Positions 7,069-61,863 of a DNA stretch of 64,000 bases are shown here, in pieces (the first letter of the stretch is position 1; every line of letters starts with the position of its first letter). The notes below the pieces were generated by a model, which was not told the origin of the DNA, made no database searches, and was given only the letters and a program-made list of their open reading frames with translations. Made by a program: the position numbers and the translations under genes. Source of the DNA: an uncultured Methanosarcinales archaeon (GTDB taxonomy: Archaea > Nanobdellota > Nanobdellia > Woesearchaeales > ARS49); the NCBI GenBank assembly GCA_964637115.1, contig CAZWVL010000003.1, positions 1-64,000 of the forward strand, in the 5' to 3' direction.

Positions 7069-7923
7069 ATGCTCGAATTAACACTTATCCTTGTCGCATT
7101 ATTTGTTCTAGTTGTTGCATCCTATGTCGACCTGCGCATATTGGAAGTGCCTGACTGGCTTAATTATGCAGGAGTTGCAGCAGGATTGGGCATACATTTG
7201 ATATTTAGTTTACAACAATTGAGCTGGTGGCCGATTGCATCAAGTGCAATAGGATTTGGAATAGCATTTGCGTTAGCATGCTTAATGTTTTACACAGGCC
7301 AATGGGGAGGAGGAGACGCAAAACTCCTGATGGCGCTTGGAGCAATAATCGGGTTTGAGCCTGAGAAATTCGGATTTGGAAGCAGTTTTCTGATTAATCT
7401 GGTGTTCATCGGCGGAGCGTGGGGAGTAATTTGGAGCGGACAACTTGCAGTTAGAAACTGGAAAGAATTCTGGAAGACATTTAGAACATTGTCGCATCAA
7501 CAACCGTATGCACGAATGAGAATAAGCGCCATGATAACAACAGCAATACTTGTCATAGCTGCGCTCATTTTATTGCAGTATCAGCTTGAATTAATCGGAC
7601 TTGCGCTCATCACGTATTTCATCTGCTATTCAATAATTTTTATCAAGAGCGTAGAGCTAAGCTGCATGCACAAATGGGTGACGCCAGACAAATTAACAGA
7701 AGGAGACTGGCTGGTAAGGCCTGTGAAGGTCGGCAAAACAGTTATTGAGCCGCCAAAATTAGGACTTGAAAAAAAACACGTGGCATACCTGCAGAAGATG
7801 TATAGTCAAAAGAAAATAGACAAAGTACTTGTAAAGTACGGAATACCGTTTGCGCCAGCATTCTTCTTTGCGTTTGTTGCGACGATGGCGTTGGGTAATA
7901 TAGTGCTTGCTGCGTTGTTCTGA
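7069..7923 (+). CDS. Prepilin/prearchaellin peptidase (A24 family, PibD/FlaK-like)
   Basis: SYVDLR (Asp1), WGGGDAKL (GxGD), multiple TM helices, C-terminal GIPFAPAF. Confidence 0.9.
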   Translation: MLELTLILVALFVLVVASYVDLRILEVPDWLNYAGVAAGLGIHLIFSLQQLSWWPIASSAIGFGIAFALACLMFYTGQWGGGDAKLLMALGAIIGFEPEKFGFGSSFLINLVFIGGAWGVIWSGQLAVRNWKEFWKTFRTLSHQQPYARMRISAMITTAILVIAALILLQYQLELIGLALITYFICYSIIFIKSVELSCMHKWVTPDKLTEGDWLVRPVKVGKTVIEPPKLGLEKKHVAYLQKMYSQKKIDKVLVKYGIPFAPAFFFAFVATMALGNIVLAALF

Positions 7924-7929
7924 TTTCAC

Positions 7930-8016
7930 GTTCGCCGTGGTCTTTGACTGACTTTTTCTCCCTCTTACAGGTACGAGGGAGAAAAAGTCATCTGAGCTTG
8001 CGCGGGCGCGGCGAAC
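7930..8016 (+). ncRNA. Structured intergenic element, copy 1 (putative ncRNA or non-autonomous palindromic element)
   Basis: Outer stem GTTCGCCGTG/CGCGGCGAAC, mini-hairpin GTC-TTT-GAC, perfect 16-bp stem 7949-7964/7975-7990; homologous to 18607-18696. Confidence 0.6.
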
Positions 8017-8081
8017 CGAAAAGGCCTTTTAACTCTCTTGTTACGACAAATCTTTAAAAGACAGCTGACTATTGCAAGCTT

Positions 8082-8186
8082 ATGGTATTAGAGACAGAAT
8101 TCCTGGTGATGATAGGTCTGCTGACGATGTTCTCAATAGTTGCAGTGATTTTGAAAACACTAAAAGCGAGAATTTTCAATATTTAG
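8082..8186 (+). CDS. Small single-pass membrane protein (34 aa), not in ORF track
   Basis: Hand translation MVLETEFLVMIGLLTMFSIVAVILKTLKARIFNI*; TATA-like TCTTTAAAAG ~25 bp upstream; stop overlaps the convergent HIT stop. Confidence 0.6.
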   Translation: MVLETEFLVMIGLLTMFSIVAVILKTLKARIFNI

Positions 8187-16972: not shown

Positions 16973-18589
16973 ATGACAGATCTAAGCGAGAGTGCAAAGT
17001 TAGTTGCCTGCGGATTTGTAAAAAAAGGTGTTGACGATAAAAAGGTAGAAATCAAAGGCAAAACAATTAAAATCGATGGAAAAATAGCAAAAGACAAGTT
17101 TAATTCTATCCAAAAAGAGTTTAAAACTCTTAATGATGACGAGAAAAAAGAACTTAACAAAGCACTACGGGAAATGGCAGAACATGAATATGTTGAAGTG
17201 GCCAGAGACCAAATGGTCATGACTGACTACCCTAAAAGCATAAGCAGATACTACATGGGTGTGGAAAGCTGGCACCAAAGCATTGAGAATTATTATTATT
17301 GGTGTATGAACTTCTTAGGAGACATAGGCTTTCCAGTAATCCACAAGATAACTGATATCTTTACGGCAGCAGAACACAGCAGCTTCTACGGCGCAGCAGG
17401 ACAACGTCTAGGATTAGCACAAGACAAAGTCTCACAATATCTTGCTACAATAGGAAAAATGGTCAAAGACCTGTTCCAATTGGTAAGAGAACTTCGATGG
17501 ATTGATGAAAGACTGGAGATTTACAGGGCGGCATTGGCAGTAGACAAAGATGGCAAAAAAATAGAAGGCAAAATGCCAGAAAGAGGCGCAGAACAAGCGC
17601 TTAAAGGAATGTGGGTGGACCTGGTAGACGGCGTGGTTGGCGGGCAAAGAACAGGAAGCAATTTGTTTGTCATGGCGCAACAACTGCAATTTACTGCATT
17701 GCCTGACTTATTTTTCTCCATACACCCTCAAAAAATAGATGAAGTAGACAAAACAGTGGAAAAGGAAGCAGAGAAGTTCAATGAGCCTTTGCGCAACTTA
17801 TTGAAAAGAAAACTATCGCAATACGTCGCGTGGAAGAAGTCGACCTTTGATGAAATGAAAAACAGAAGACTCTTCACTCTAAGATATCTCAAACAGCACT
17901 ATGATGTTATAAGAATGTACATTCAATGGGCGAAGCCGTACATCAAGCATATTGAAAGGTTGTCTGGAGAGCAGAATTTACTTGACAATCCACGCTTGAT
18001 TGCCGCATTTGAAAGCAGTCTTGTCGAAATAGAAGTGCTGGCCATAAACAGACCAGAAGGCTCAAAAGAATCATATGCCTGCATACTAATGACGTTTGAA
18101 TACCACACCAAACCAAGCATGCAGTATCCAGGAGATGCAGGCTACCATCGGGGTCCTATTCATGTTGGTTCTACCAGAATAACGTGGAGAAGCTATGCGT
18201 GGAGTGAAGAGCAGGTAAAAGAGTATCTTGAAATGCGCCGCTGGCAGGATTTAGAAACATTGACCTCTATTGACGGATCGCTCAGGGCAGCAATGGACGC
18301 ATTAGGAAGTGACTTACTCAACTACATTGACGAAGCAGAAAAAACACACAAAGAAGAGAAAAAAGAAGAGCCGCAAAAAAAGCAGCCAATCAATGTCTTA
18401 GAGCCATTCACGGCAGTAGGCAAAGGAGTCAGGGAAGCTTTTGGAGGACTCATTCCTGACTTTGGAAAGATTACTTTTGGCAAAGGCGGAAAGCCGGAAA
18501 AAGAAGCGCCAAATGAAACAGCCGCCCGAAAAGCGTGTTGGCTGCATTATAACATTTTCAAGAAAGCACACGGTTTGTTGGCGTGGTAG
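16973..18589 (+). CDS. Hypothetical protein (538 aa, largely helical)
   Basis: Long ORF with host-like A-rich codon usage; no recognised motif. Confidence 0.8.
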   Translation: MTDLSESAKLVACGFVKKGVDDKKVEIKGKTIKIDGKIAKDKFNSIQKEFKTLNDDEKKELNKALREMAEHEYVEVARDQMVMTDYPKSISRYYMGVESWHQSIENYYYWCMNFLGDIGFPVIHKITDIFTAAEHSSFYGAAGQRLGLAQDKVSQYLATIGKMVKDLFQLVRELRWIDERLEIYRAALAVDKDGKKIEGKMPERGAEQALKGMWVDLVDGVVGGQRTGSNLFVMAQQLQFTALPDLFFSIHPQKIDEVDKTVEKEAEKFNEPLRNLLKRKLSQYVAWKKSTFDEMKNRRLFTLRYLKQHYDVIRMYIQWAKPYIKHIERLSGEQNLLDNPRLIAAFESSLVEIEVLAINRPEGSKESYACILMTFEYHTKPSMQYPGDAGYHRGPIHVGSTRITWRSYAWSEEQVKEYLEMRRWQDLETLTSIDGSLRAAMDALGSDLLNYIDEAEKTHKEEKKEEPQKKQPINVLEPFTAVGKGVREAFGGLIPDFGKITFGKGGKPEKEAPNETAARKACWLHYNIFKKAHGLLAW

Positions 18590-18606
18590 TATTTCTTTAG
18601 TTTTTT

Positions 18607-18696
18607 GTTCGTCGCGGTCGAGGACAATTTTTTCTCCCCTTGCTAGTACAGGGGAGAAAAAATTACATGAGCAGAGCTCAGGCGTGGCGGCATAAC
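18607..18696 (+). ncRNA. Structured intergenic element, copy 2
   Basis: Outer stem CGTCGCG/CGTGGCG with two G-U pairs, GTC-GAG-GAC, perfect 15-bp stem 18626-18640/18650-18664, hairpin TGAGC-AGA-GCTCA. Confidence 0.6.
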
Positions 18697-18727: not shown

Positions 18728-19312
18728 ATGGGAACGGACTTTTCACCCTTCAAAGACATGACGCCACAAAGGCGCCTGAAAGAACTTCAAAAGCTACTTG
18801 ATACTTTAAAGAAAGAAATAGAAGACAGACAAGACGACATCAAAGCAGCAGCGCAAATGCTTTCATTAGCTGATGAGGAAGCACGACTTCTAGAACAAAT
18901 AGAAGTGCCGGAAACGCGAGCAATGCCGCGCAAGGCAAAAGAAATAGAAGAAAGAGTGGAAGTCAAGGAAGAAAAAAAAGGAAGAGTAACACGGGAAGAA
19001 CAATTAGAACTTGAAAAATTACTTGCAACAGCGCCGCCCAGAAGTCCGCAAGTATTGCATGAATTTGCACACCGAGAAGTCAGAGAACTTTACGGCGAAA
19101 CGAAAAGAATCTACGAAAGACAAAAAGAAACAGGCATTGAAACGCAGCAAGACAGAGAAATGATTTACGCCATCAGAAAAGGGCTGGAAATCAAAAAAGA
19201 AGAGGGATACAAACCAGCCGGAACAGCAAGACATTTGATGACGGCAGCAGAACAAATGGCGGAAAGTATGTACCAAACAGGCGCGGGAACGTACAAGAGA
19301 GCGCCGGGATGA
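18728..19312 (+). CDS. Hypothetical charged coiled-coil protein
   Basis: E/K-rich heptads; TATA-like ATTATAAAG ~25 bp upstream. Confidence 0.75.
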   Translation: MGTDFSPFKDMTPQRRLKELQKLLDTLKKEIEDRQDDIKAAAQMLSLADEEARLLEQIEVPETRAMPRKAKEIEERVEVKEEKKGRVTREEQLELEKLLATAPPRSPQVLHEFAHREVRELYGETKRIYERQKETGIETQQDREMIYAIRKGLEIKKEEGYKPAGTARHLMTAAEQMAESMYQTGAGTYKRAPG

Positions 19313-19779: not shown

Positions 19780-21828
19780 ATGGCCGAGTTCAGAATGGCG
19801 TATTACGGGCCGATGGACAGAGAATACCATCAGGCAATCTCAGAAGCACCTGCAGATACAGGGCCAAGCTTGGAAGCACCCATTGCGCCGATAAATGAAC
19901 TGGGAGAAACAGTTCCAGAACACGATCCATCAGGCAGATTCAAAAATATTATTCAAACAACACAGGCAGCCATCAGGGGAGGAGCAGGAACGCTGCAACT
20001 AGTTCTTATGACGCCGCATGAAAGCGCAATCGGCGGAAGACCAAAAGCATACGGCAAGGAAGTCAGAGAAACATTAAAAGAAGTTGCATTAGCAAGCAAA
20101 GTCAACATTGCAGGTGTGGAACTTCCAACCTCGCTCAACAACCTCGCAGGATTTGATTATCAAAATCAGGTTTTCTCAGATGAAAGAAGAAAACAAAGCT
20201 TGGATGAAGTCAGAGATGCAATAAAATTTGCAGCAGACGTCGGCAGAGGCGGCGGAGTAGACATTGTTTCCTGGGAGTTTCCAAGAGGAGTAAATGAAGC
20301 GGACTGGAACGCTCCAAAAGTACCTGGCAAAGAAGAAACAAAACCATTCAAACAAGAAGGAGAGGAGAGAAAAGGCTGGCTGGTAGACGACAGAACCGGC
20401 AGAACCATGCAAATCAGAAAAGACGAAGTACAGCATATTCCATATGATGTAGAAACTTTCAATCCATTGAGGCCAACCAAAGAAGAACTCGCAAAACTGG
20501 AAAGAGGAGAGATAAAAGAACTGCCACTCAGCGAGTTCAAATGGGAAGATTTCAAACGCTGGGCTGAGCACTCCAATGAGCAGATAAAAAAAGGAATTGA
20601 TCCAGAAACCAACAAGCCGTGGGGCATAGATCCAGAAACTGGCCAAGAATGGGCGGCAGACAGAGAAACAGTACAAGCAGAAAGAGAGCGCGCAAAGGAA
20701 ATTTATGATCAAAGAATCAAGGAAGGAAGGCTAATAACGGCTGATGAAAAGTACATTGAAGTCCAGCTCCAAGGACAGATCAATTCACTCGTCGGCTGGA
20801 GAACACACTATGCAAAACGCGCACAAGACGCACGCGAAGCAATGGATGCAGCTGAGCAAGAGGTGCGCGAAGCTGAAAGCGACGAGGCCCGAAGGGCGGC
20901 AGATCTCGATTTCAAAAGAGCGAAACATGAATATGAAGATTCCCTCCACACGTCACACGGACAACAACAGCAGATAGACGAGCTCAAAGAACGCTTCAGG
21001 CATATCAAACCAATCAAAGATTATGCATTAAAAAGAAGCGCGAGAACGTATGCAGAAGCAGGTGTAGAGGCAATGCGCACAGAGTTACAAGGAAGAGAAA
21101 AAGGAACAGTAGAAAGGCCGGTGCACGTTGGTCCAGAAATCGGATGGCCAGGATTCTACGGCAGCCACCCGGATGAATTCATAGAGCTTGTACAAAAATC
21201 ACGAAAAGAAATGGTAGAACTCCTTACAAAACCAATGATCAAGGATGTTAAAGGCGTGGATATGCAAAACCCATACTGTGATCCGACTATTGGCAAACAC
21301 AAAGCACAAGAACTTGCAGACAAGCATATCAAAGGATTGTTTGATACGAGCCATATGGGAATGTGGCTCGCACACTTTGAAGCGAAACCTGGTGAGACTG
21401 AAGAAAAGCGCATAGAACGCTTCAAAAAAGACTTCTACCTGCCAGCAGTCGAGAAAATAATTAAAGCAGGAGTAGTTGGAGGAATACAGCTGGTAGACAG
21501 CATGTCAGCAGCACATGGACATTTGCCTCCAGGAGAAGGCATCTTCCCGGTAATGGAAACTGCCAAGCTCTTCAAAGAAAGCGGCTTTACAGGCTTCATG
21601 GTCTCAGAAGGCCACGAAGAAGAAAAGTTCGGGGAAGGAAGAATCAGGACAAAGATGTGGCAGCATGCAGGAGCGAACGTAGGAGCAGGATACTTCTCAG
21701 GACCGCCGTTACGCTGGGGACAAGTACAACACGGTTATTTCGGCAAAACGTACTCGCCAATGTTCATGTTTGGAGGATACTCGCCAAGCAACGAGTTTAA
21801 GTTATGGAGTGAAGTTCCGTTAGAGTAA
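19780..21828 (+). CDS. Xylose-isomerase/AP-endonuclease-2-like TIM-barrel metalloprotein with large helical insertion
   Basis: Metal-ligand-style motifs GPEIGW, FDTSH, QLVD, HLPPGEG, VSEG; ~150-aa charged insertion. Confidence 0.7.
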   Translation: MAEFRMAYYGPMDREYHQAISEAPADTGPSLEAPIAPINELGETVPEHDPSGRFKNIIQTTQAAIRGGAGTLQLVLMTPHESAIGGRPKAYGKEVRETLKEVALASKVNIAGVELPTSLNNLAGFDYQNQVFSDERRKQSLDEVRDAIKFAADVGRGGGVDIVSWEFPRGVNEADWNAPKVPGKEETKPFKQEGEERKGWLVDDRTGRTMQIRKDEVQHIPYDVETFNPLRPTKEELAKLERGEIKELPLSEFKWEDFKRWAEHSNEQIKKGIDPETNKPWGIDPETGQEWAADRETVQAERERAKEIYDQRIKEGRLITADEKYIEVQLQGQINSLVGWRTHYAKRAQDAREAMDAAEQEVREAESDEARRAADLDFKRAKHEYEDSLHTSHGQQQQIDELKERFRHIKPIKDYALKRSARTYAEAGVEAMRTELQGREKGTVERPVHVGPEIGWPGFYGSHPDEFIELVQKSRKEMVELLTKPMIKDVKGVDMQNPYCDPTIGKHKAQELADKHIKGLFDTSHMGMWLAHFEAKPGETEEKRIERFKKDFYLPAVEKIIKAGVVGGIQLVDSMSAAHGHLPPGEGIFPVMETAKLFKESGFTGFMVSEGHEEEKFGEGRIRTKMWQHAGANVGAGYFSGPPLRWGQVQHGYFGKTYSPMFMFGGYSPSNEFKLWSEVPLE

Positions 21829-21896
21829 CTTAGAATTAGGCTCCGCAATCATATCAGAAGGGCTTTAACCGCCAGCCCCTCTTGAACTCCCCGCGG

Positions 21897-22247
21897 TCAA
21901 TAATTCGTTCTCTTCTTCCACCATTTGTCATCAGAAGGCAAGCTTTTGCCATATTTCTCAAAAATATCAACCAAAATAATCTGCTCGTTATCCTCATAAA
22001 CCATTGGTTTTAATTCGTGCTTAAGCTCAGTGCCAAGAATTATTTCCTGATGTTCTGGCTGATTGTATTCACCAGAAGCATTAGAAGGTTCGTCAACATA
22101 CGCCTGGTCCGGCTGGATGGAATGCAATTCATCAATCTGCTCTTCCACCAATTCCTCTAATGCAGGCTGCGAAATCTGCTCTTCAGGTCCAGGAGGTGGC
22201 TCGTCCAGCTCTTGCTTCTCTGTTGTTTCAGAAATAAACTCAACCAC
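21897..22247 (-). CDS. Acidic hypothetical protein
   Basis: E/P/Q-rich ORF ending KWWKKRTNY. Confidence 0.55.
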   Translation of the reverse strand: MVEFISETTEKQELDEPPPGPEEQISQPALEELVEEQIDELHSIQPDQAYVDEPSNASGEYNQPEHQEIILGTELKHELKPMVYEDNEQIILVDIFEKYGKSLPSDDKWWKKRTNY

Positions 22248-22260
22248 TTTTTTTCTTCAC

Positions 22261-22959
22261 TCAGTTAAATATTATTTTTCCTTCGTACATCAATTTCCAC
22301 ATGACTGGGGAAAGTATCTTGATAGAGTCCTTTAAGTATTTAATATTTGTGTCGATCAGCGCTTCAACAAAAGGATGATTGGTTTCAGATCCCTGCTTGA
22401 TACTTGCTACCATTTCCTGCGCTTCCTGCAAAAATTCGTGCTGGTAATCTGTCGTGCTTGTTATCGTGGCGCCTGTTTGGCTATTTTCTCCCTGCACCAT
22501 GTCGTAATATTTGCCTGCGTCATAGGATGAACTGCTGTAACCGGGCAGGTCAATTGAGTAAGAGGTGCTTTCAAAACTTTCAGGGTCCATCTGCTGTTCA
22601 ATAACCGGAGAAACAGTTTCAATGGCTTCTGCGTCCAACTTTTCAGTCAATTCAGACTCTTTTGCTGCGCTCAAGGCTGCTTCAAGCTCGTTGATGACCA
22701 GCTCTAGGTTACTTTCATTATATTTTCCCATTAATTTCCGCCGCGGTCTCTTCGAGACTCGATTTATCTCCCCTTCGCATGCGAGGGGAGATACAATCGA
22801 CCTTGGCTCTTGCCAAGGCGCGGCGTCATCGATGTCTATTTCTAGCAAATTCGCATCACTCAGAATCATTTCAAGAATTACAGACAGGAACTGCTTATTA
22901 AGATTTTCGGAAACACCGACTGATGACGAAACACAAGCTGCAGAATTAATTGTTTTCAT
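22261..22959 (-). CDS. Acidic hypothetical protein
   Basis: Start trimmed to ATG 22959 to avoid overlap with the divergent gene; the true start is uncertain. Confidence 0.55.
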   Translation of the reverse strand: MKTINSAACVSSSVGVSENLNKQFLSVILEMILSDANLLEIDIDDAAPWQEPRSIVSPLACEGEINRVSKRPRRKLMGKYNESNLELVINELEAALSAAKESELTEKLDAEAIETVSPVIEQQMDPESFESTSYSIDLPGYSSSSYDAGKYYDMVQGENSQTGATITSTTDYQHEFLQEAQEMVASIKQGSETNHPFVEALIDTNIKYLKDSIKILSPVMWKLMYEGKIIFN

Positions 22960-40569: not shown

Positions 40570-40628
40570 CCGCGAAAATGCCGTGCATTTTCGGGACCAT
40601 CGGAAATTTTCAATTTCCGAGGTTTTTT
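40570..40628 (+). repeat. Doublet of tagged palindromes followed by a T-tract (REP-like and terminator-like)
   Basis: CGAAAATGC-cgt-GCATTTTCG (40573-40593), then CATCGGAAATT-ttc-AATTTCCGAG (40598-40621), then T7. Confidence 0.75.
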
Positions 40629-42749: not shown

Positions 42750-42829
42750 ATGCCTTTTTTGTCATACTTTCTAGTATATAAATCTTATGATTTAAATGTC
42801 GTAGTTTTTGTGATGGGGTAGAATACGAA

Positions 42830-48092: not shown

Positions 48093-48144
48093 CCTCGAAA
48101 ATGCAAAGCATTTTCGATGGTCATCAAAAACCTACGTTTTTGAG
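48093..48144. repeat. Back-to-back doublet of CATC...GAG-tagged palindromes
   Basis: CCTC-GAAAATGC-aaa-GCATTTTC-GATG-gt-CATC-AAAAAC-ctac-GTTTTT-GAG. Confidence 0.8.
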
Positions 48145-61624: not shown

Positions 61625-61863
61625 TGTGGAGAACAGAGCTCATCCCAGTCGACCTTTTCAGGCAGGTTGATCTTGTCTTTTACGGCCGTGAAAAATTCCA
61701 AACAAACCTGTCTCGGATCCTTTTTTTCTAAAATGATTTTGTCTTCCTGCACAGAAAAAACAACCTCGCTACCTGGAGAAATGTTGAATAAATCTCTAAC
61801 TGGCTTTGGAATGACAACCTGGCCCTTCTCGCCAACGCCTGCTATGAGCTTAAGTTCTACCAT
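61621..61863 (-). CDS. vapB: AbrB/MazE-type antitoxin (VapB)
   Basis: VGEKGQVVIPK.VR..FNI.PG.EV.F. Confidence 0.9.
   Translation of the reverse strand: MVELKLIAGVGEKGQVVIPKPVRDLFNISPGSEVVFSVQEDKIILEKKDPRQVCLEFFTAVKDKINLPEKVDWDELCSPQ

Follow-up and report, generated by a model that had tools for sequence, protein, structure and literature searches.

The window, i.e. the whole stretch of 64,000 nucleotides analyzed here, corresponds to positions 1-64000 of contig C3 of genome G000, an assembly of 1.27 Mb in 27 contigs. A gene of the type IV prepilin peptidase family (7069-7923; Pfam PF01478, E 8e-14) is followed by a small palindromic element, copy 1 (7930-8016), which begins 7 nt past the stop codon at 7921-7923; the peptidase gene itself lies outside the element. 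Further downstream, the TATA box TTTAAAAG (8054-8061) precedes a gene with its ATG at 8084. These features and all parts of the three copies described below are located on the + strand. Copy 1 consists of an outer stem (7930-7939/8007-8016), a mini-hairpin GTC-TTT-GAC (7940-7948), a long hairpin with arms at 7949-7964 and 7975-7990 around a loop at 7965-7974, and a third hairpin (7991-8006), which is decayed and reads CTGAGC...GCGCGG where ...GCTCAG would be expected. The predicted fold has an energy of -46.5 kcal/mol (z -5.8), and 0 of 200 dinucleotide shuffles were as stable; extended pairing lengthens the outer stem by TTTC..GAAA. A covariance model built from six copies matched positions 7927-8019 with 90.1 bits (E 1e-18).

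Copy 2 (18607-18692; model match 18604-18695, 80.8 bits) starts 18 nt past the + strand stop codon at 18587-18589. It shows an outer stem with two G-U pairs (18610-18616/18683-18689), a mini-hairpin (18617-18625), a long hairpin (18626-18639/18651-18664), and a third hairpin (18668-18680); the stability of its fold (-36.2 kcal/mol, z -4.6) was again reached by 0 of 200 dinucleotide shuffles, and the TATA box of the gene at 18728 begins 8 nt past the outer stem. The initial annotation had described these two loci as copies of an element with a common order of motifs, located after a + strand stop codon and differing by compensatory changes. Order and position are present as claimed, and so are the differences: the base of the long stem reads TGAC/GTCA in copy 1 and AATT/AATT in copy 2, and the loop of the mini-hairpin TTT and GAG, respectively. 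The long-stem pattern TTTTTCTCCC-N6-20-GGGAGAAAAA was found twice in the window as compared to 0 expected occurrences. The element is real, but it is not a pair, because the covariance model identified 15 copies in the 1.27-Mb genome including a third one in the window. This copy 3 (22733-22831; 55.7 bits, E 3e-10) comprises an outer stem (22738-22745/22819-22825), a mini-hairpin of 5 bp (22746-22758), a long hairpin of a TTTAT variant with a compensating change (22760-22773/22785-22799), and a third hairpin (22801-22818). Two other palindromic stretches of the window (40570-40621 and 48094-48144) were rejected as family members; they form different, shorter hairpins (CGAAAATG..CATTTTCG and CGGAAATTTTCAATTTCCG) which are unrelated by eye.

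A scan of the whole G000 assembly revealed a dozen loci carrying the long stem, and the whole architecture was common to them. It is a four-way junction. The outer stem is GC-rich (CGCCGCG/CGCGGCG or variants) and measures 7-14 bp throughout the copies; the hairpins are a mini-hairpin GTC-NNN-GAC, a 15-bp long hairpin with a T-rich and an A-rich arm (TGAATTTTTCTCCCC-loop-GGGGAGAAAAATTCA), and a third one of the CCTTGG-N3-5-CCAAGG type. About 9 of 12 copies have this junction as their minimum-free-energy structure. The initial annotation had recognised no tRNA, C/D sRNA, or ribozyme consensus, and this agrees with the searches: Rfam 15 at gathering score gave no match to the element in the window, and ARAGORN detected no tRNA there, the only one in the window being a tRNA-Lys at 42829. 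With Rfam at an E-value threshold, five copies gave nothing better than E 0.4 and ten loci with terminal inverted repeats (TIRs) nothing relevant.

When 75 copies were aligned to the model, standard pairs occupied 95.6% of the cells, as compared to 77.9% in shuffles and 40-54% with slid partners, and double (compensatory) changes occurred at 31 of the 33 pairs. The covariation score was 0.547 against 0.209 for shuffles (0 of 500 reached 0.547) and 0.07-0.13 for slid controls, in an alignment that was fitted to the model and whose copies are related to one another. Several pairs are occupied by three or four Watson-Crick types at near-equal frequency, e.g. CG 33/UA 25/GC 12. Near-invariance is confined to three U-A pairs in the center of the long stem, and both strands therefore carry a T-run: runs of at least 4 were present on both strands in 64 of 94 copies, and runs of at least 5 in 25 of 94 copies as compared to 0.2% of shuffles. 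Hence, the pairing that the initial annotation had seen to be kept between two copies is borne out by strong covariation among many homologues; it is the fold, not the sequence, which is kept in this element.

Of 14 congeners, 10 contain matches to the covariance model, and so do two other genera of this taxonomic family; 41 other families, represented by one genome each, gave none. Matches per genome among the congeners varied from none or 1 to 2 and up to at least 42, and congener G006 contains at least 55 paired units in 0.9 Mb. Across the clade, the copies number in the hundreds. When 185,579 species genomes were scanned with a pattern, model-confirmed matches were obtained only in MAGs labelled Woesearchaeota, Nanoarchaeota, or "uncultured archaeon", with two exceptions, namely one MAG labelled Methanosarcinales and one weak match in an "uncultured bacterium" MAG. 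Viral carriage was rejected, since of two pattern matches in viral contigs (IMG/VR) neither was confirmed by the covariance model. Three of the genomes used, G010, G059, and G114, are unpublished: G010 provides one of the eight empty sites described below and one count row, G059 and G114 enter only the tally of G006-type ends, and no conclusion rests on these three. As a separate observation, the public MAG CAYUHB01..., labelled "uncultured Methanosarcinales archaeon", contains many copies of the Woesearchaeota-specific element, and its label looks wrong.

Comparison of orthologous loci revealed that the insert of copy 1 is missing from eight congeners (G014, G006, G001, G009, G007, G012, G010, and G002). 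In these genomes the stop codon of the upstream gene is directly followed by the next promoter, the TATA box at 8054-8061 being kept, and G000 has about 100 extra bases. The whole inserted unit therefore probably spans 7924-8023 (about 100 bp). Alignment with the empty sites points to a target-site duplication with a probable left copy TTGTTCTGA (7915-7923), in which the upstream gene still has its final codons and its stop, and a probable right copy GCCTTTTAA (8024-8032), which is identical at 7 of 9 positions to the single CTCTTTTAA of the empty site in G014. Left of the insert, G000 reads GCG-TTG-TTC-TGA and the single site of G014 reads GCA-CTC-TTT-TAA, both encoding A-L-F-stop, and the decayed second target copy lies to the right of the insert. 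Thus, the target was probably duplicated upon insertion of copy 1, and judging from these sequences the left copy has been maintained by selection on the protein. Copy 1 now provides the sequence right past the stop codon of the peptidase gene.

At the same site, G008 carries a copy of its own with a different sequence, which is flanked by a perfect 15-bp direct repeat; this 15-mer occurs once in the near relative G002, and the G008 copy represents an independent insertion. Copy 2 is missing from the orthologous site in G005, and so is copy 3, whose flanks are 12 nt apart in G005 as compared to 147 nt in G000. Empty sites thus exist for all three window copies. Furthermore, direct repeats of at least 9 nt flank 24 of 94 copies from nine genomes, whereas 1.6 were expected from mismatched flank pairs. 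Outside G006 the lengths of these duplications vary (9, 10, 15, 16), most old copies have no detectable duplication, the stretch that separates duplication and core varies among copies, and no flanks are common to the copies except for orthologous copies common to species. Empty orthologous sites, target-site duplications, and copy numbers that differ widely between congeners support one proposal of the initial annotation, a mobile palindromic, non-autonomous element. In G013 (contig C48), the site orthologous to 7924-8023 holds a different insert of about 90 nt with two other hairpins, GAAAACGACA...TGTCGTTTTC and AAAAGACG...CGTCTTTT; palindromic inserts have a hot spot here.

The same annotation had also considered an independent ncRNA or a strand-specific RNA in the 3'UTR. 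The covariation, which is very strong in all four helices, would also suit a cis-acting structured RNA (a 3'UTR stabiliser, terminator, or insulator) or a family of small RNA genes in which the RNA fold is selected and mobility is secondary. Many copies are indeed located 3-20 nt past stop codons and some between convergent genes, the T-runs on both strands would fit a terminator, and the model strand is more stable than its complement in 7 of 9 clear copies. However, orientation relative to the neighboring genes shows no preference: among 35 copies with 3-kb context and crude ORF calls, 11 were tandem-same, 9 tandem-opposite, 8 convergent, and 7 divergent, the latter lying in divergent promoter regions. 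Flanks, promoters included, are not conserved between copies of one genome, so that there is no common external promoter, and presence or absence of the element differs between sister species at housekeeping loci.

The initial annotation had furthermore inferred from outer-stem mismatches, all G-U on the + strand, that structure is selected in one orientation. This holds for the two copies from which it was drawn, but not in general, because over 94 copies 92 G-U cells are opposed by 64 A-C cells. The slight G-U excess, although it would favor an RNA, lies far below that of real RNAs and is as expected from random transitions in a once-perfect palindrome. Additionally, apical loops occur in both orientations (TTGC..TGCA and TGCA..GCAA), the loop TTAGCTTGCGC of G003 corresponds to the G008-type loops GCAAGCTAA in reverse complement, and in G006 the entire three-hairpin core points either way while the outer ends stay the same. 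Palindromes are known to mutate by flipping of this kind between their inverted arms. With no Rfam match either, and since a two-way terminator arising as a side effect fits mobile DNA equally well, we regard a cis-acting RNA or small RNA gene as unlikely.

A young subfamily of the mobile element is present in G006. Here, inverted repeats GGTGCTGTCAACTTAATGGTG...CACCAGAGAGTTGACTTAACC enclose the core; they are imperfect, about 20 bp long, and contain two 3x3 mismatched loops. The units begin with GGTGCTGTCAACTTAA and end with TTGACTTAACC, giving terminal inverted repeats 5'-GGT...ACC-3'. Within 0.9 Mb, about 50-70 occurrences of the end motifs were counted. Fifty-five units of 121-142 bp could be paired, and in 44 of them a 9-bp duplication with at most one mismatch abuts the inverted-repeat ends. 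Outward from the unit ends, the 9 bp of the duplication are followed by 5 bp, mostly xAACx, and by a TATA-like octamer (TTTATAAA, TTTTTAAA). An ATG is located 43-48 nt from the unit end at 10 of 12 promoter-side ends examined and 62-66 nt from the other two; these octamers therefore belong to promoters, mostly of leaderless genes, which fire away from the element. With a strict pattern, an octamer starting at offset 11-15 was detected at endB (GGTGCTG...) in 37 of 55 units, at endA in 17 of 55, and at both ends in 9, which leaves 28 endB-only against 8 endA-only units. The offset was exactly 14 in 28 cases, with almost none outside 12-16, and further TATA-like octamers are visible at the same offset where the strict pattern misses several. 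In this subfamily, the element end lies 14 bp upstream of the TATA box, i.e. the 9-bp duplication plus the 5-bp BRE position, and the site is the narrow gap between the end of one gene and the next promoter.

The promoter existed in a genome without the insert. Upstream of the ATG at 19780, G000 reads aaacc-TTTAAATA-gtccagtagcc; the orthologous site of G006 reads aaaca-TTTATAAA-gtccagtagcc and is preceded by the duplication TAAACGCAT and then by the element, so BRE and TATA box are present in G000 though the site is empty. G006-type ends with the 14-bp TATA spacing also occur at low copy in four other genera (G034, G053, G037, and G058), where they bound small elements of 157-435 bp with other cores. 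In G000, a single remnant of such ends was found: the copy at C4:61864-61959 (end at 61853) retains TTGACTTACACC followed by 9 bp, AAATA, and TTTATAAA. Furthermore, the duplication is flush with BRE/TATA in 4 of 24 tests on copies of G004, G007, and G015 as compared to 0.1 expected. The three window copies carry neither G006-type ends nor the flush TATA geometry, and in copy 1 about 21 nt separate the right duplication from the TATA box at 8054; they are older, partly decayed members of the family. On the far side of the G006 inserts, the gap to the stop codon is only 0-11 nt, and survivorship in tiny intergenic spacers could account for some of the placement at promoter edges. A real target choice is favored, however, by the constant spacing towards the promoter and by the bias between the two ends.

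Ten Pfam families of transposases, recombinases, and reverse transcriptases (RT) were searched and found to be absent or not to track copy number. PF01609 (DDE_Tnp_1), PF00872 (IS256), PF07282 (TnpB), and PF01867 (Cas1) gave no match in the genomes tested, PF03400 (IS1) and PF12762 (IS1595) are absent from all 15 congeners, and PF00665 (rve) was found only in G008. These negatives carry little weight, because the genomes are MAGs, in which repeated IS copies often remain unassembled. The G006 end presumably resembles the inverted repeat of IS1, an IS which makes 9-bp duplications; this lead was rejected since neither PF03400 nor PF12762 is present in the congeners. A tyrosine recombinase was rejected as well: PF00589 proteins of 430-445 aa are encoded in the three highest-copy genomes, but also in the low-copy genomes G003 and G009, where the gene is beside or near an RT, and G000, estimated to be 98% complete, has no PF00589 (Xer-type) match. 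Neither PF00589 nor PF00078 (RT) follows the copy number of the element. As a side observation, an RT gene lies 1.5 kb from a gene for a tyrosine recombinase of 430-435 aa in G002 (C72:16720-19330) and G009 (C3:836-3466); this pair, absent from G000, is possibly a mobile or diversity-generating cassette.

No long element bounded by G006 ends, i.e. no autonomous IS, was detected. The unpaired G006 end at C2:39136 was considered as an autonomous partner and rejected, being a truncated copy beside the S17e and Alba genes (ORFs by reading). ORFs at solo ends in other genera, coding for a 454-aa protein without Pfam match, a DUF1385 protein, and a radical-SAM protein, were likewise rejected as transposases. 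The 454-aa ORF (L293:1482-2846; G034, contig C13) has HD-like motifs, HDIGK and HEGYG, by eye as well as its own TATA box, and lies about 200 nt inside a solo G006-type end.

The initial annotation had named an HUH/IS200-IS605 or RT-based system as mobiliser, and neither fits these data. Neither system produces 9-bp target duplications, and most carrier genomes, G000 included, lack Y1_Tnp, TnpB, and RT. HUH (Y1) enzymes such as those of IS200/IS605 or RAYT identify their substrates by hairpins and not by sequence, and a REP/PATE-type element moved by them as single-stranded DNA would explain why structure is conserved and sequence varies, why many old copies have no detectable duplication, and why ends are not conserved outside G006. 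Transposition by these enzymes makes no target duplication, as established for IS200/IS605, whereas clear 9-bp target duplications are present here. Moreover, among five carrier genomes tested Y1_Tnp (PF01797) was found only in G015 and TnpB in none, and no conserved 5' tetranucleotide adjoins the element; we therefore consider movement by an HUH enzyme very unlikely. Even less probable, and largely refuted, is a SINE-like retro-element, i.e. a tRNA-like cloverleaf RNA copied by target-primed reverse transcription. The fold does resemble a cloverleaf in its architecture and the direct repeats outside G006 vary between 9 and 16 nt, but RT was detected in only 3 of 15 congeners (G002, G008, and G009) and is absent from G000, G004, and G006. 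There is no A-tail and no tRNA match by ARAGORN or Rfam, the core occurs in both orientations inside fixed inverted ends, and the duplication is fixed at 9 bp in the young subfamily.

Two further known systems were rejected. Integron attC sites are characterized by R''/R' core sites (RYYYAAC...GTTRRRY), cassette arrays, and an IntI integrase; here, GTTCG...CGAAC is a feature of copy 1 alone, which the rest of the family does not conserve, the copies are dispersed among housekeeping genes, and G000 lacks PF00589. Casposons depend on a Cas1 casposase and produce duplications of 14-15 bp; PF01867 was absent from five carriers, and the modal duplication is 9 bp.

Very probably, the elements form a family of non-autonomous, MITE-like foldback transposable elements of about 90-140 bp, which contain no ORF and are confined to one Woesearchaeota clade. 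They share the defining features of MITEs: a size of 90-142 bp, many dispersed copies, terminal inverted repeats, a duplication fixed at 9 bp in G006, and insertion polymorphism. A related autonomous IS with the same ends was not found in the genomes searched, so that by its defining features the element is a MITE except for a known autonomous partner. The 9-bp target-site duplications of the young copies are the signature of a DDE-type, staggered-cut transposase. Against this assignment stand ends that are not conserved outside G006, which is unusual for a transposase reading conserved ends, and a core whose conservation exceeds that of the ends, whereas typical MITEs show the opposite.

MITEs are known from archaea, e.g. 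the SM elements of Sulfolobus and the MITEs of Haloquadratum and Halobacterium. Like prokaryotic MITEs in general, the present elements are small, non-coding, multi-copy, intergenic, polymorphic, and taxon-restricted, carry TIRs and a duplication, and depend on a transposase in trans. In contrast to those, conservation, with heavy covariation, resides here in the internal three-hairpin core instead of the ends, the searches revealed neither a related IS nor a related transposase, and the young subfamily is fixed relative to TATA boxes. In a bulk census, a woesearchaeal genome with about 105 MITEs per Mb ranked among the most MITE-dense archaea (PMC11602168). With REP/BIME-RAYT elements and the IS200/IS605-derived PATEs, the family has in common that dispersed extragenic palindromes, often at gene 3' ends, keep their pairing despite drift; those elements move as single-stranded DNA via HUH enzymes and leave no duplication, whereas here 9-bp duplications occur and most carriers lack Y1 and TnpB. 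ERIC, Correia/NEMIS, RUP, and BOX are bacterial MITE-like repeats acting on mRNA. They too are mobile inserts, and their stably folding transcripts can end or stabilise neighboring mRNAs; in contrast, they are single long hairpins of bacteria, and the archaeal element forms a four-way junction with oligo-T on both strands.

For yeast Ty3 and Dictyostelium TRE5-A, TFIIIB mediates integration at a set distance from Pol III promoters. As a works-like comparison only, the precise placement by a promoter of the TBP/TFB(Brf) type, sparing genes in a compact genome, resembles the pattern in G006; Ty3 and TRE5-A belong to the LTR or non-LTR retroelements and encode an integrase or RT of their own, whereas the element described here is a tiny DNA element. 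No description of the four-way family or its fold was found in the literature searched. New are the heavily covarying four-way core that the copies have in common, its flip-flop isomers, the duplication of 9 bp, the precise promoter-edge placement of the young subfamily, and the fact that no known transposase was found.

The unit is a long imperfect palindrome, with terminal inverted repeats running into a GC-rich outer stem that bears three hairpins; therefore, either single strand can fold into the four-way junction. The enzyme would act in trans from outside the assembled genomes and may be unbinned, lost, or of unknown family, and stem pairing may be kept because mobility or tolerance by the host needs a folded or symmetrical structure. 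Oligo-T tracts are archaeal termination signals. The T-run/A-run of the long hairpin places oligo-T on both strands, by which the insert may also act as a two-way transcription stop. Tentatively, and with more doubt than confidence, we propose an unrecognised archaeal transposition system which would read promoter architecture and integrate with a 9-bp stagger at the upstream BRE/TATA edge, 14 bp from the TATA box, guided by DNA that TBP/TFB has bound or bent, in the way Ty3 and TRE5-A depend on TFIIIB, or by the BRE-TATA sequence; the enzyme would recognise the four-way junction, which would double as a two-way terminator. If so, a genome with hardly any spare DNA would take no harm from the insert owing to the terminator role of the junction. 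Should the promoter-edge placement reflect enzymatic targeting, it would be the archaeal counterpart of the safe-haven strategy of yeast and Dictyostelium retrotransposons, and promoter occupancy in archaea could be probed with it naturally.

In DPANN archaea, genomes are very small and densely packed, and few mobile elements have been recognised in them, yet G006 holds at least 55 copies in 0.9 Mb, and despite these copies its assembly contains no known transposase. With the covariance model of the family, true copies can be told from background and insertion polymorphisms detected by comparing species. For annotation, the inserts call for caution, as they mimic structured RNAs and can shift apparent gene ends.

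Two observations concern the surroundings of the elements. Promoters of this lineage (window 8084 and 19780, and the G006 flanks) follow the layout xAA(C/A/G)x-TTTAWAAA, with the ATG after about 22-24 nt, which suggests mostly leaderless mRNAs and a promoter consensus usable for annotation. In the window, about 70 nt (21830-21899) have no counterpart at the orthologous site of G005, which leaves only 3 nt between the flanks. They do not match the four-way covariance model, resemble stretches elsewhere in G014 (C129) and G012 (C92), and probably represent a second, unrelated small mobile repeat.
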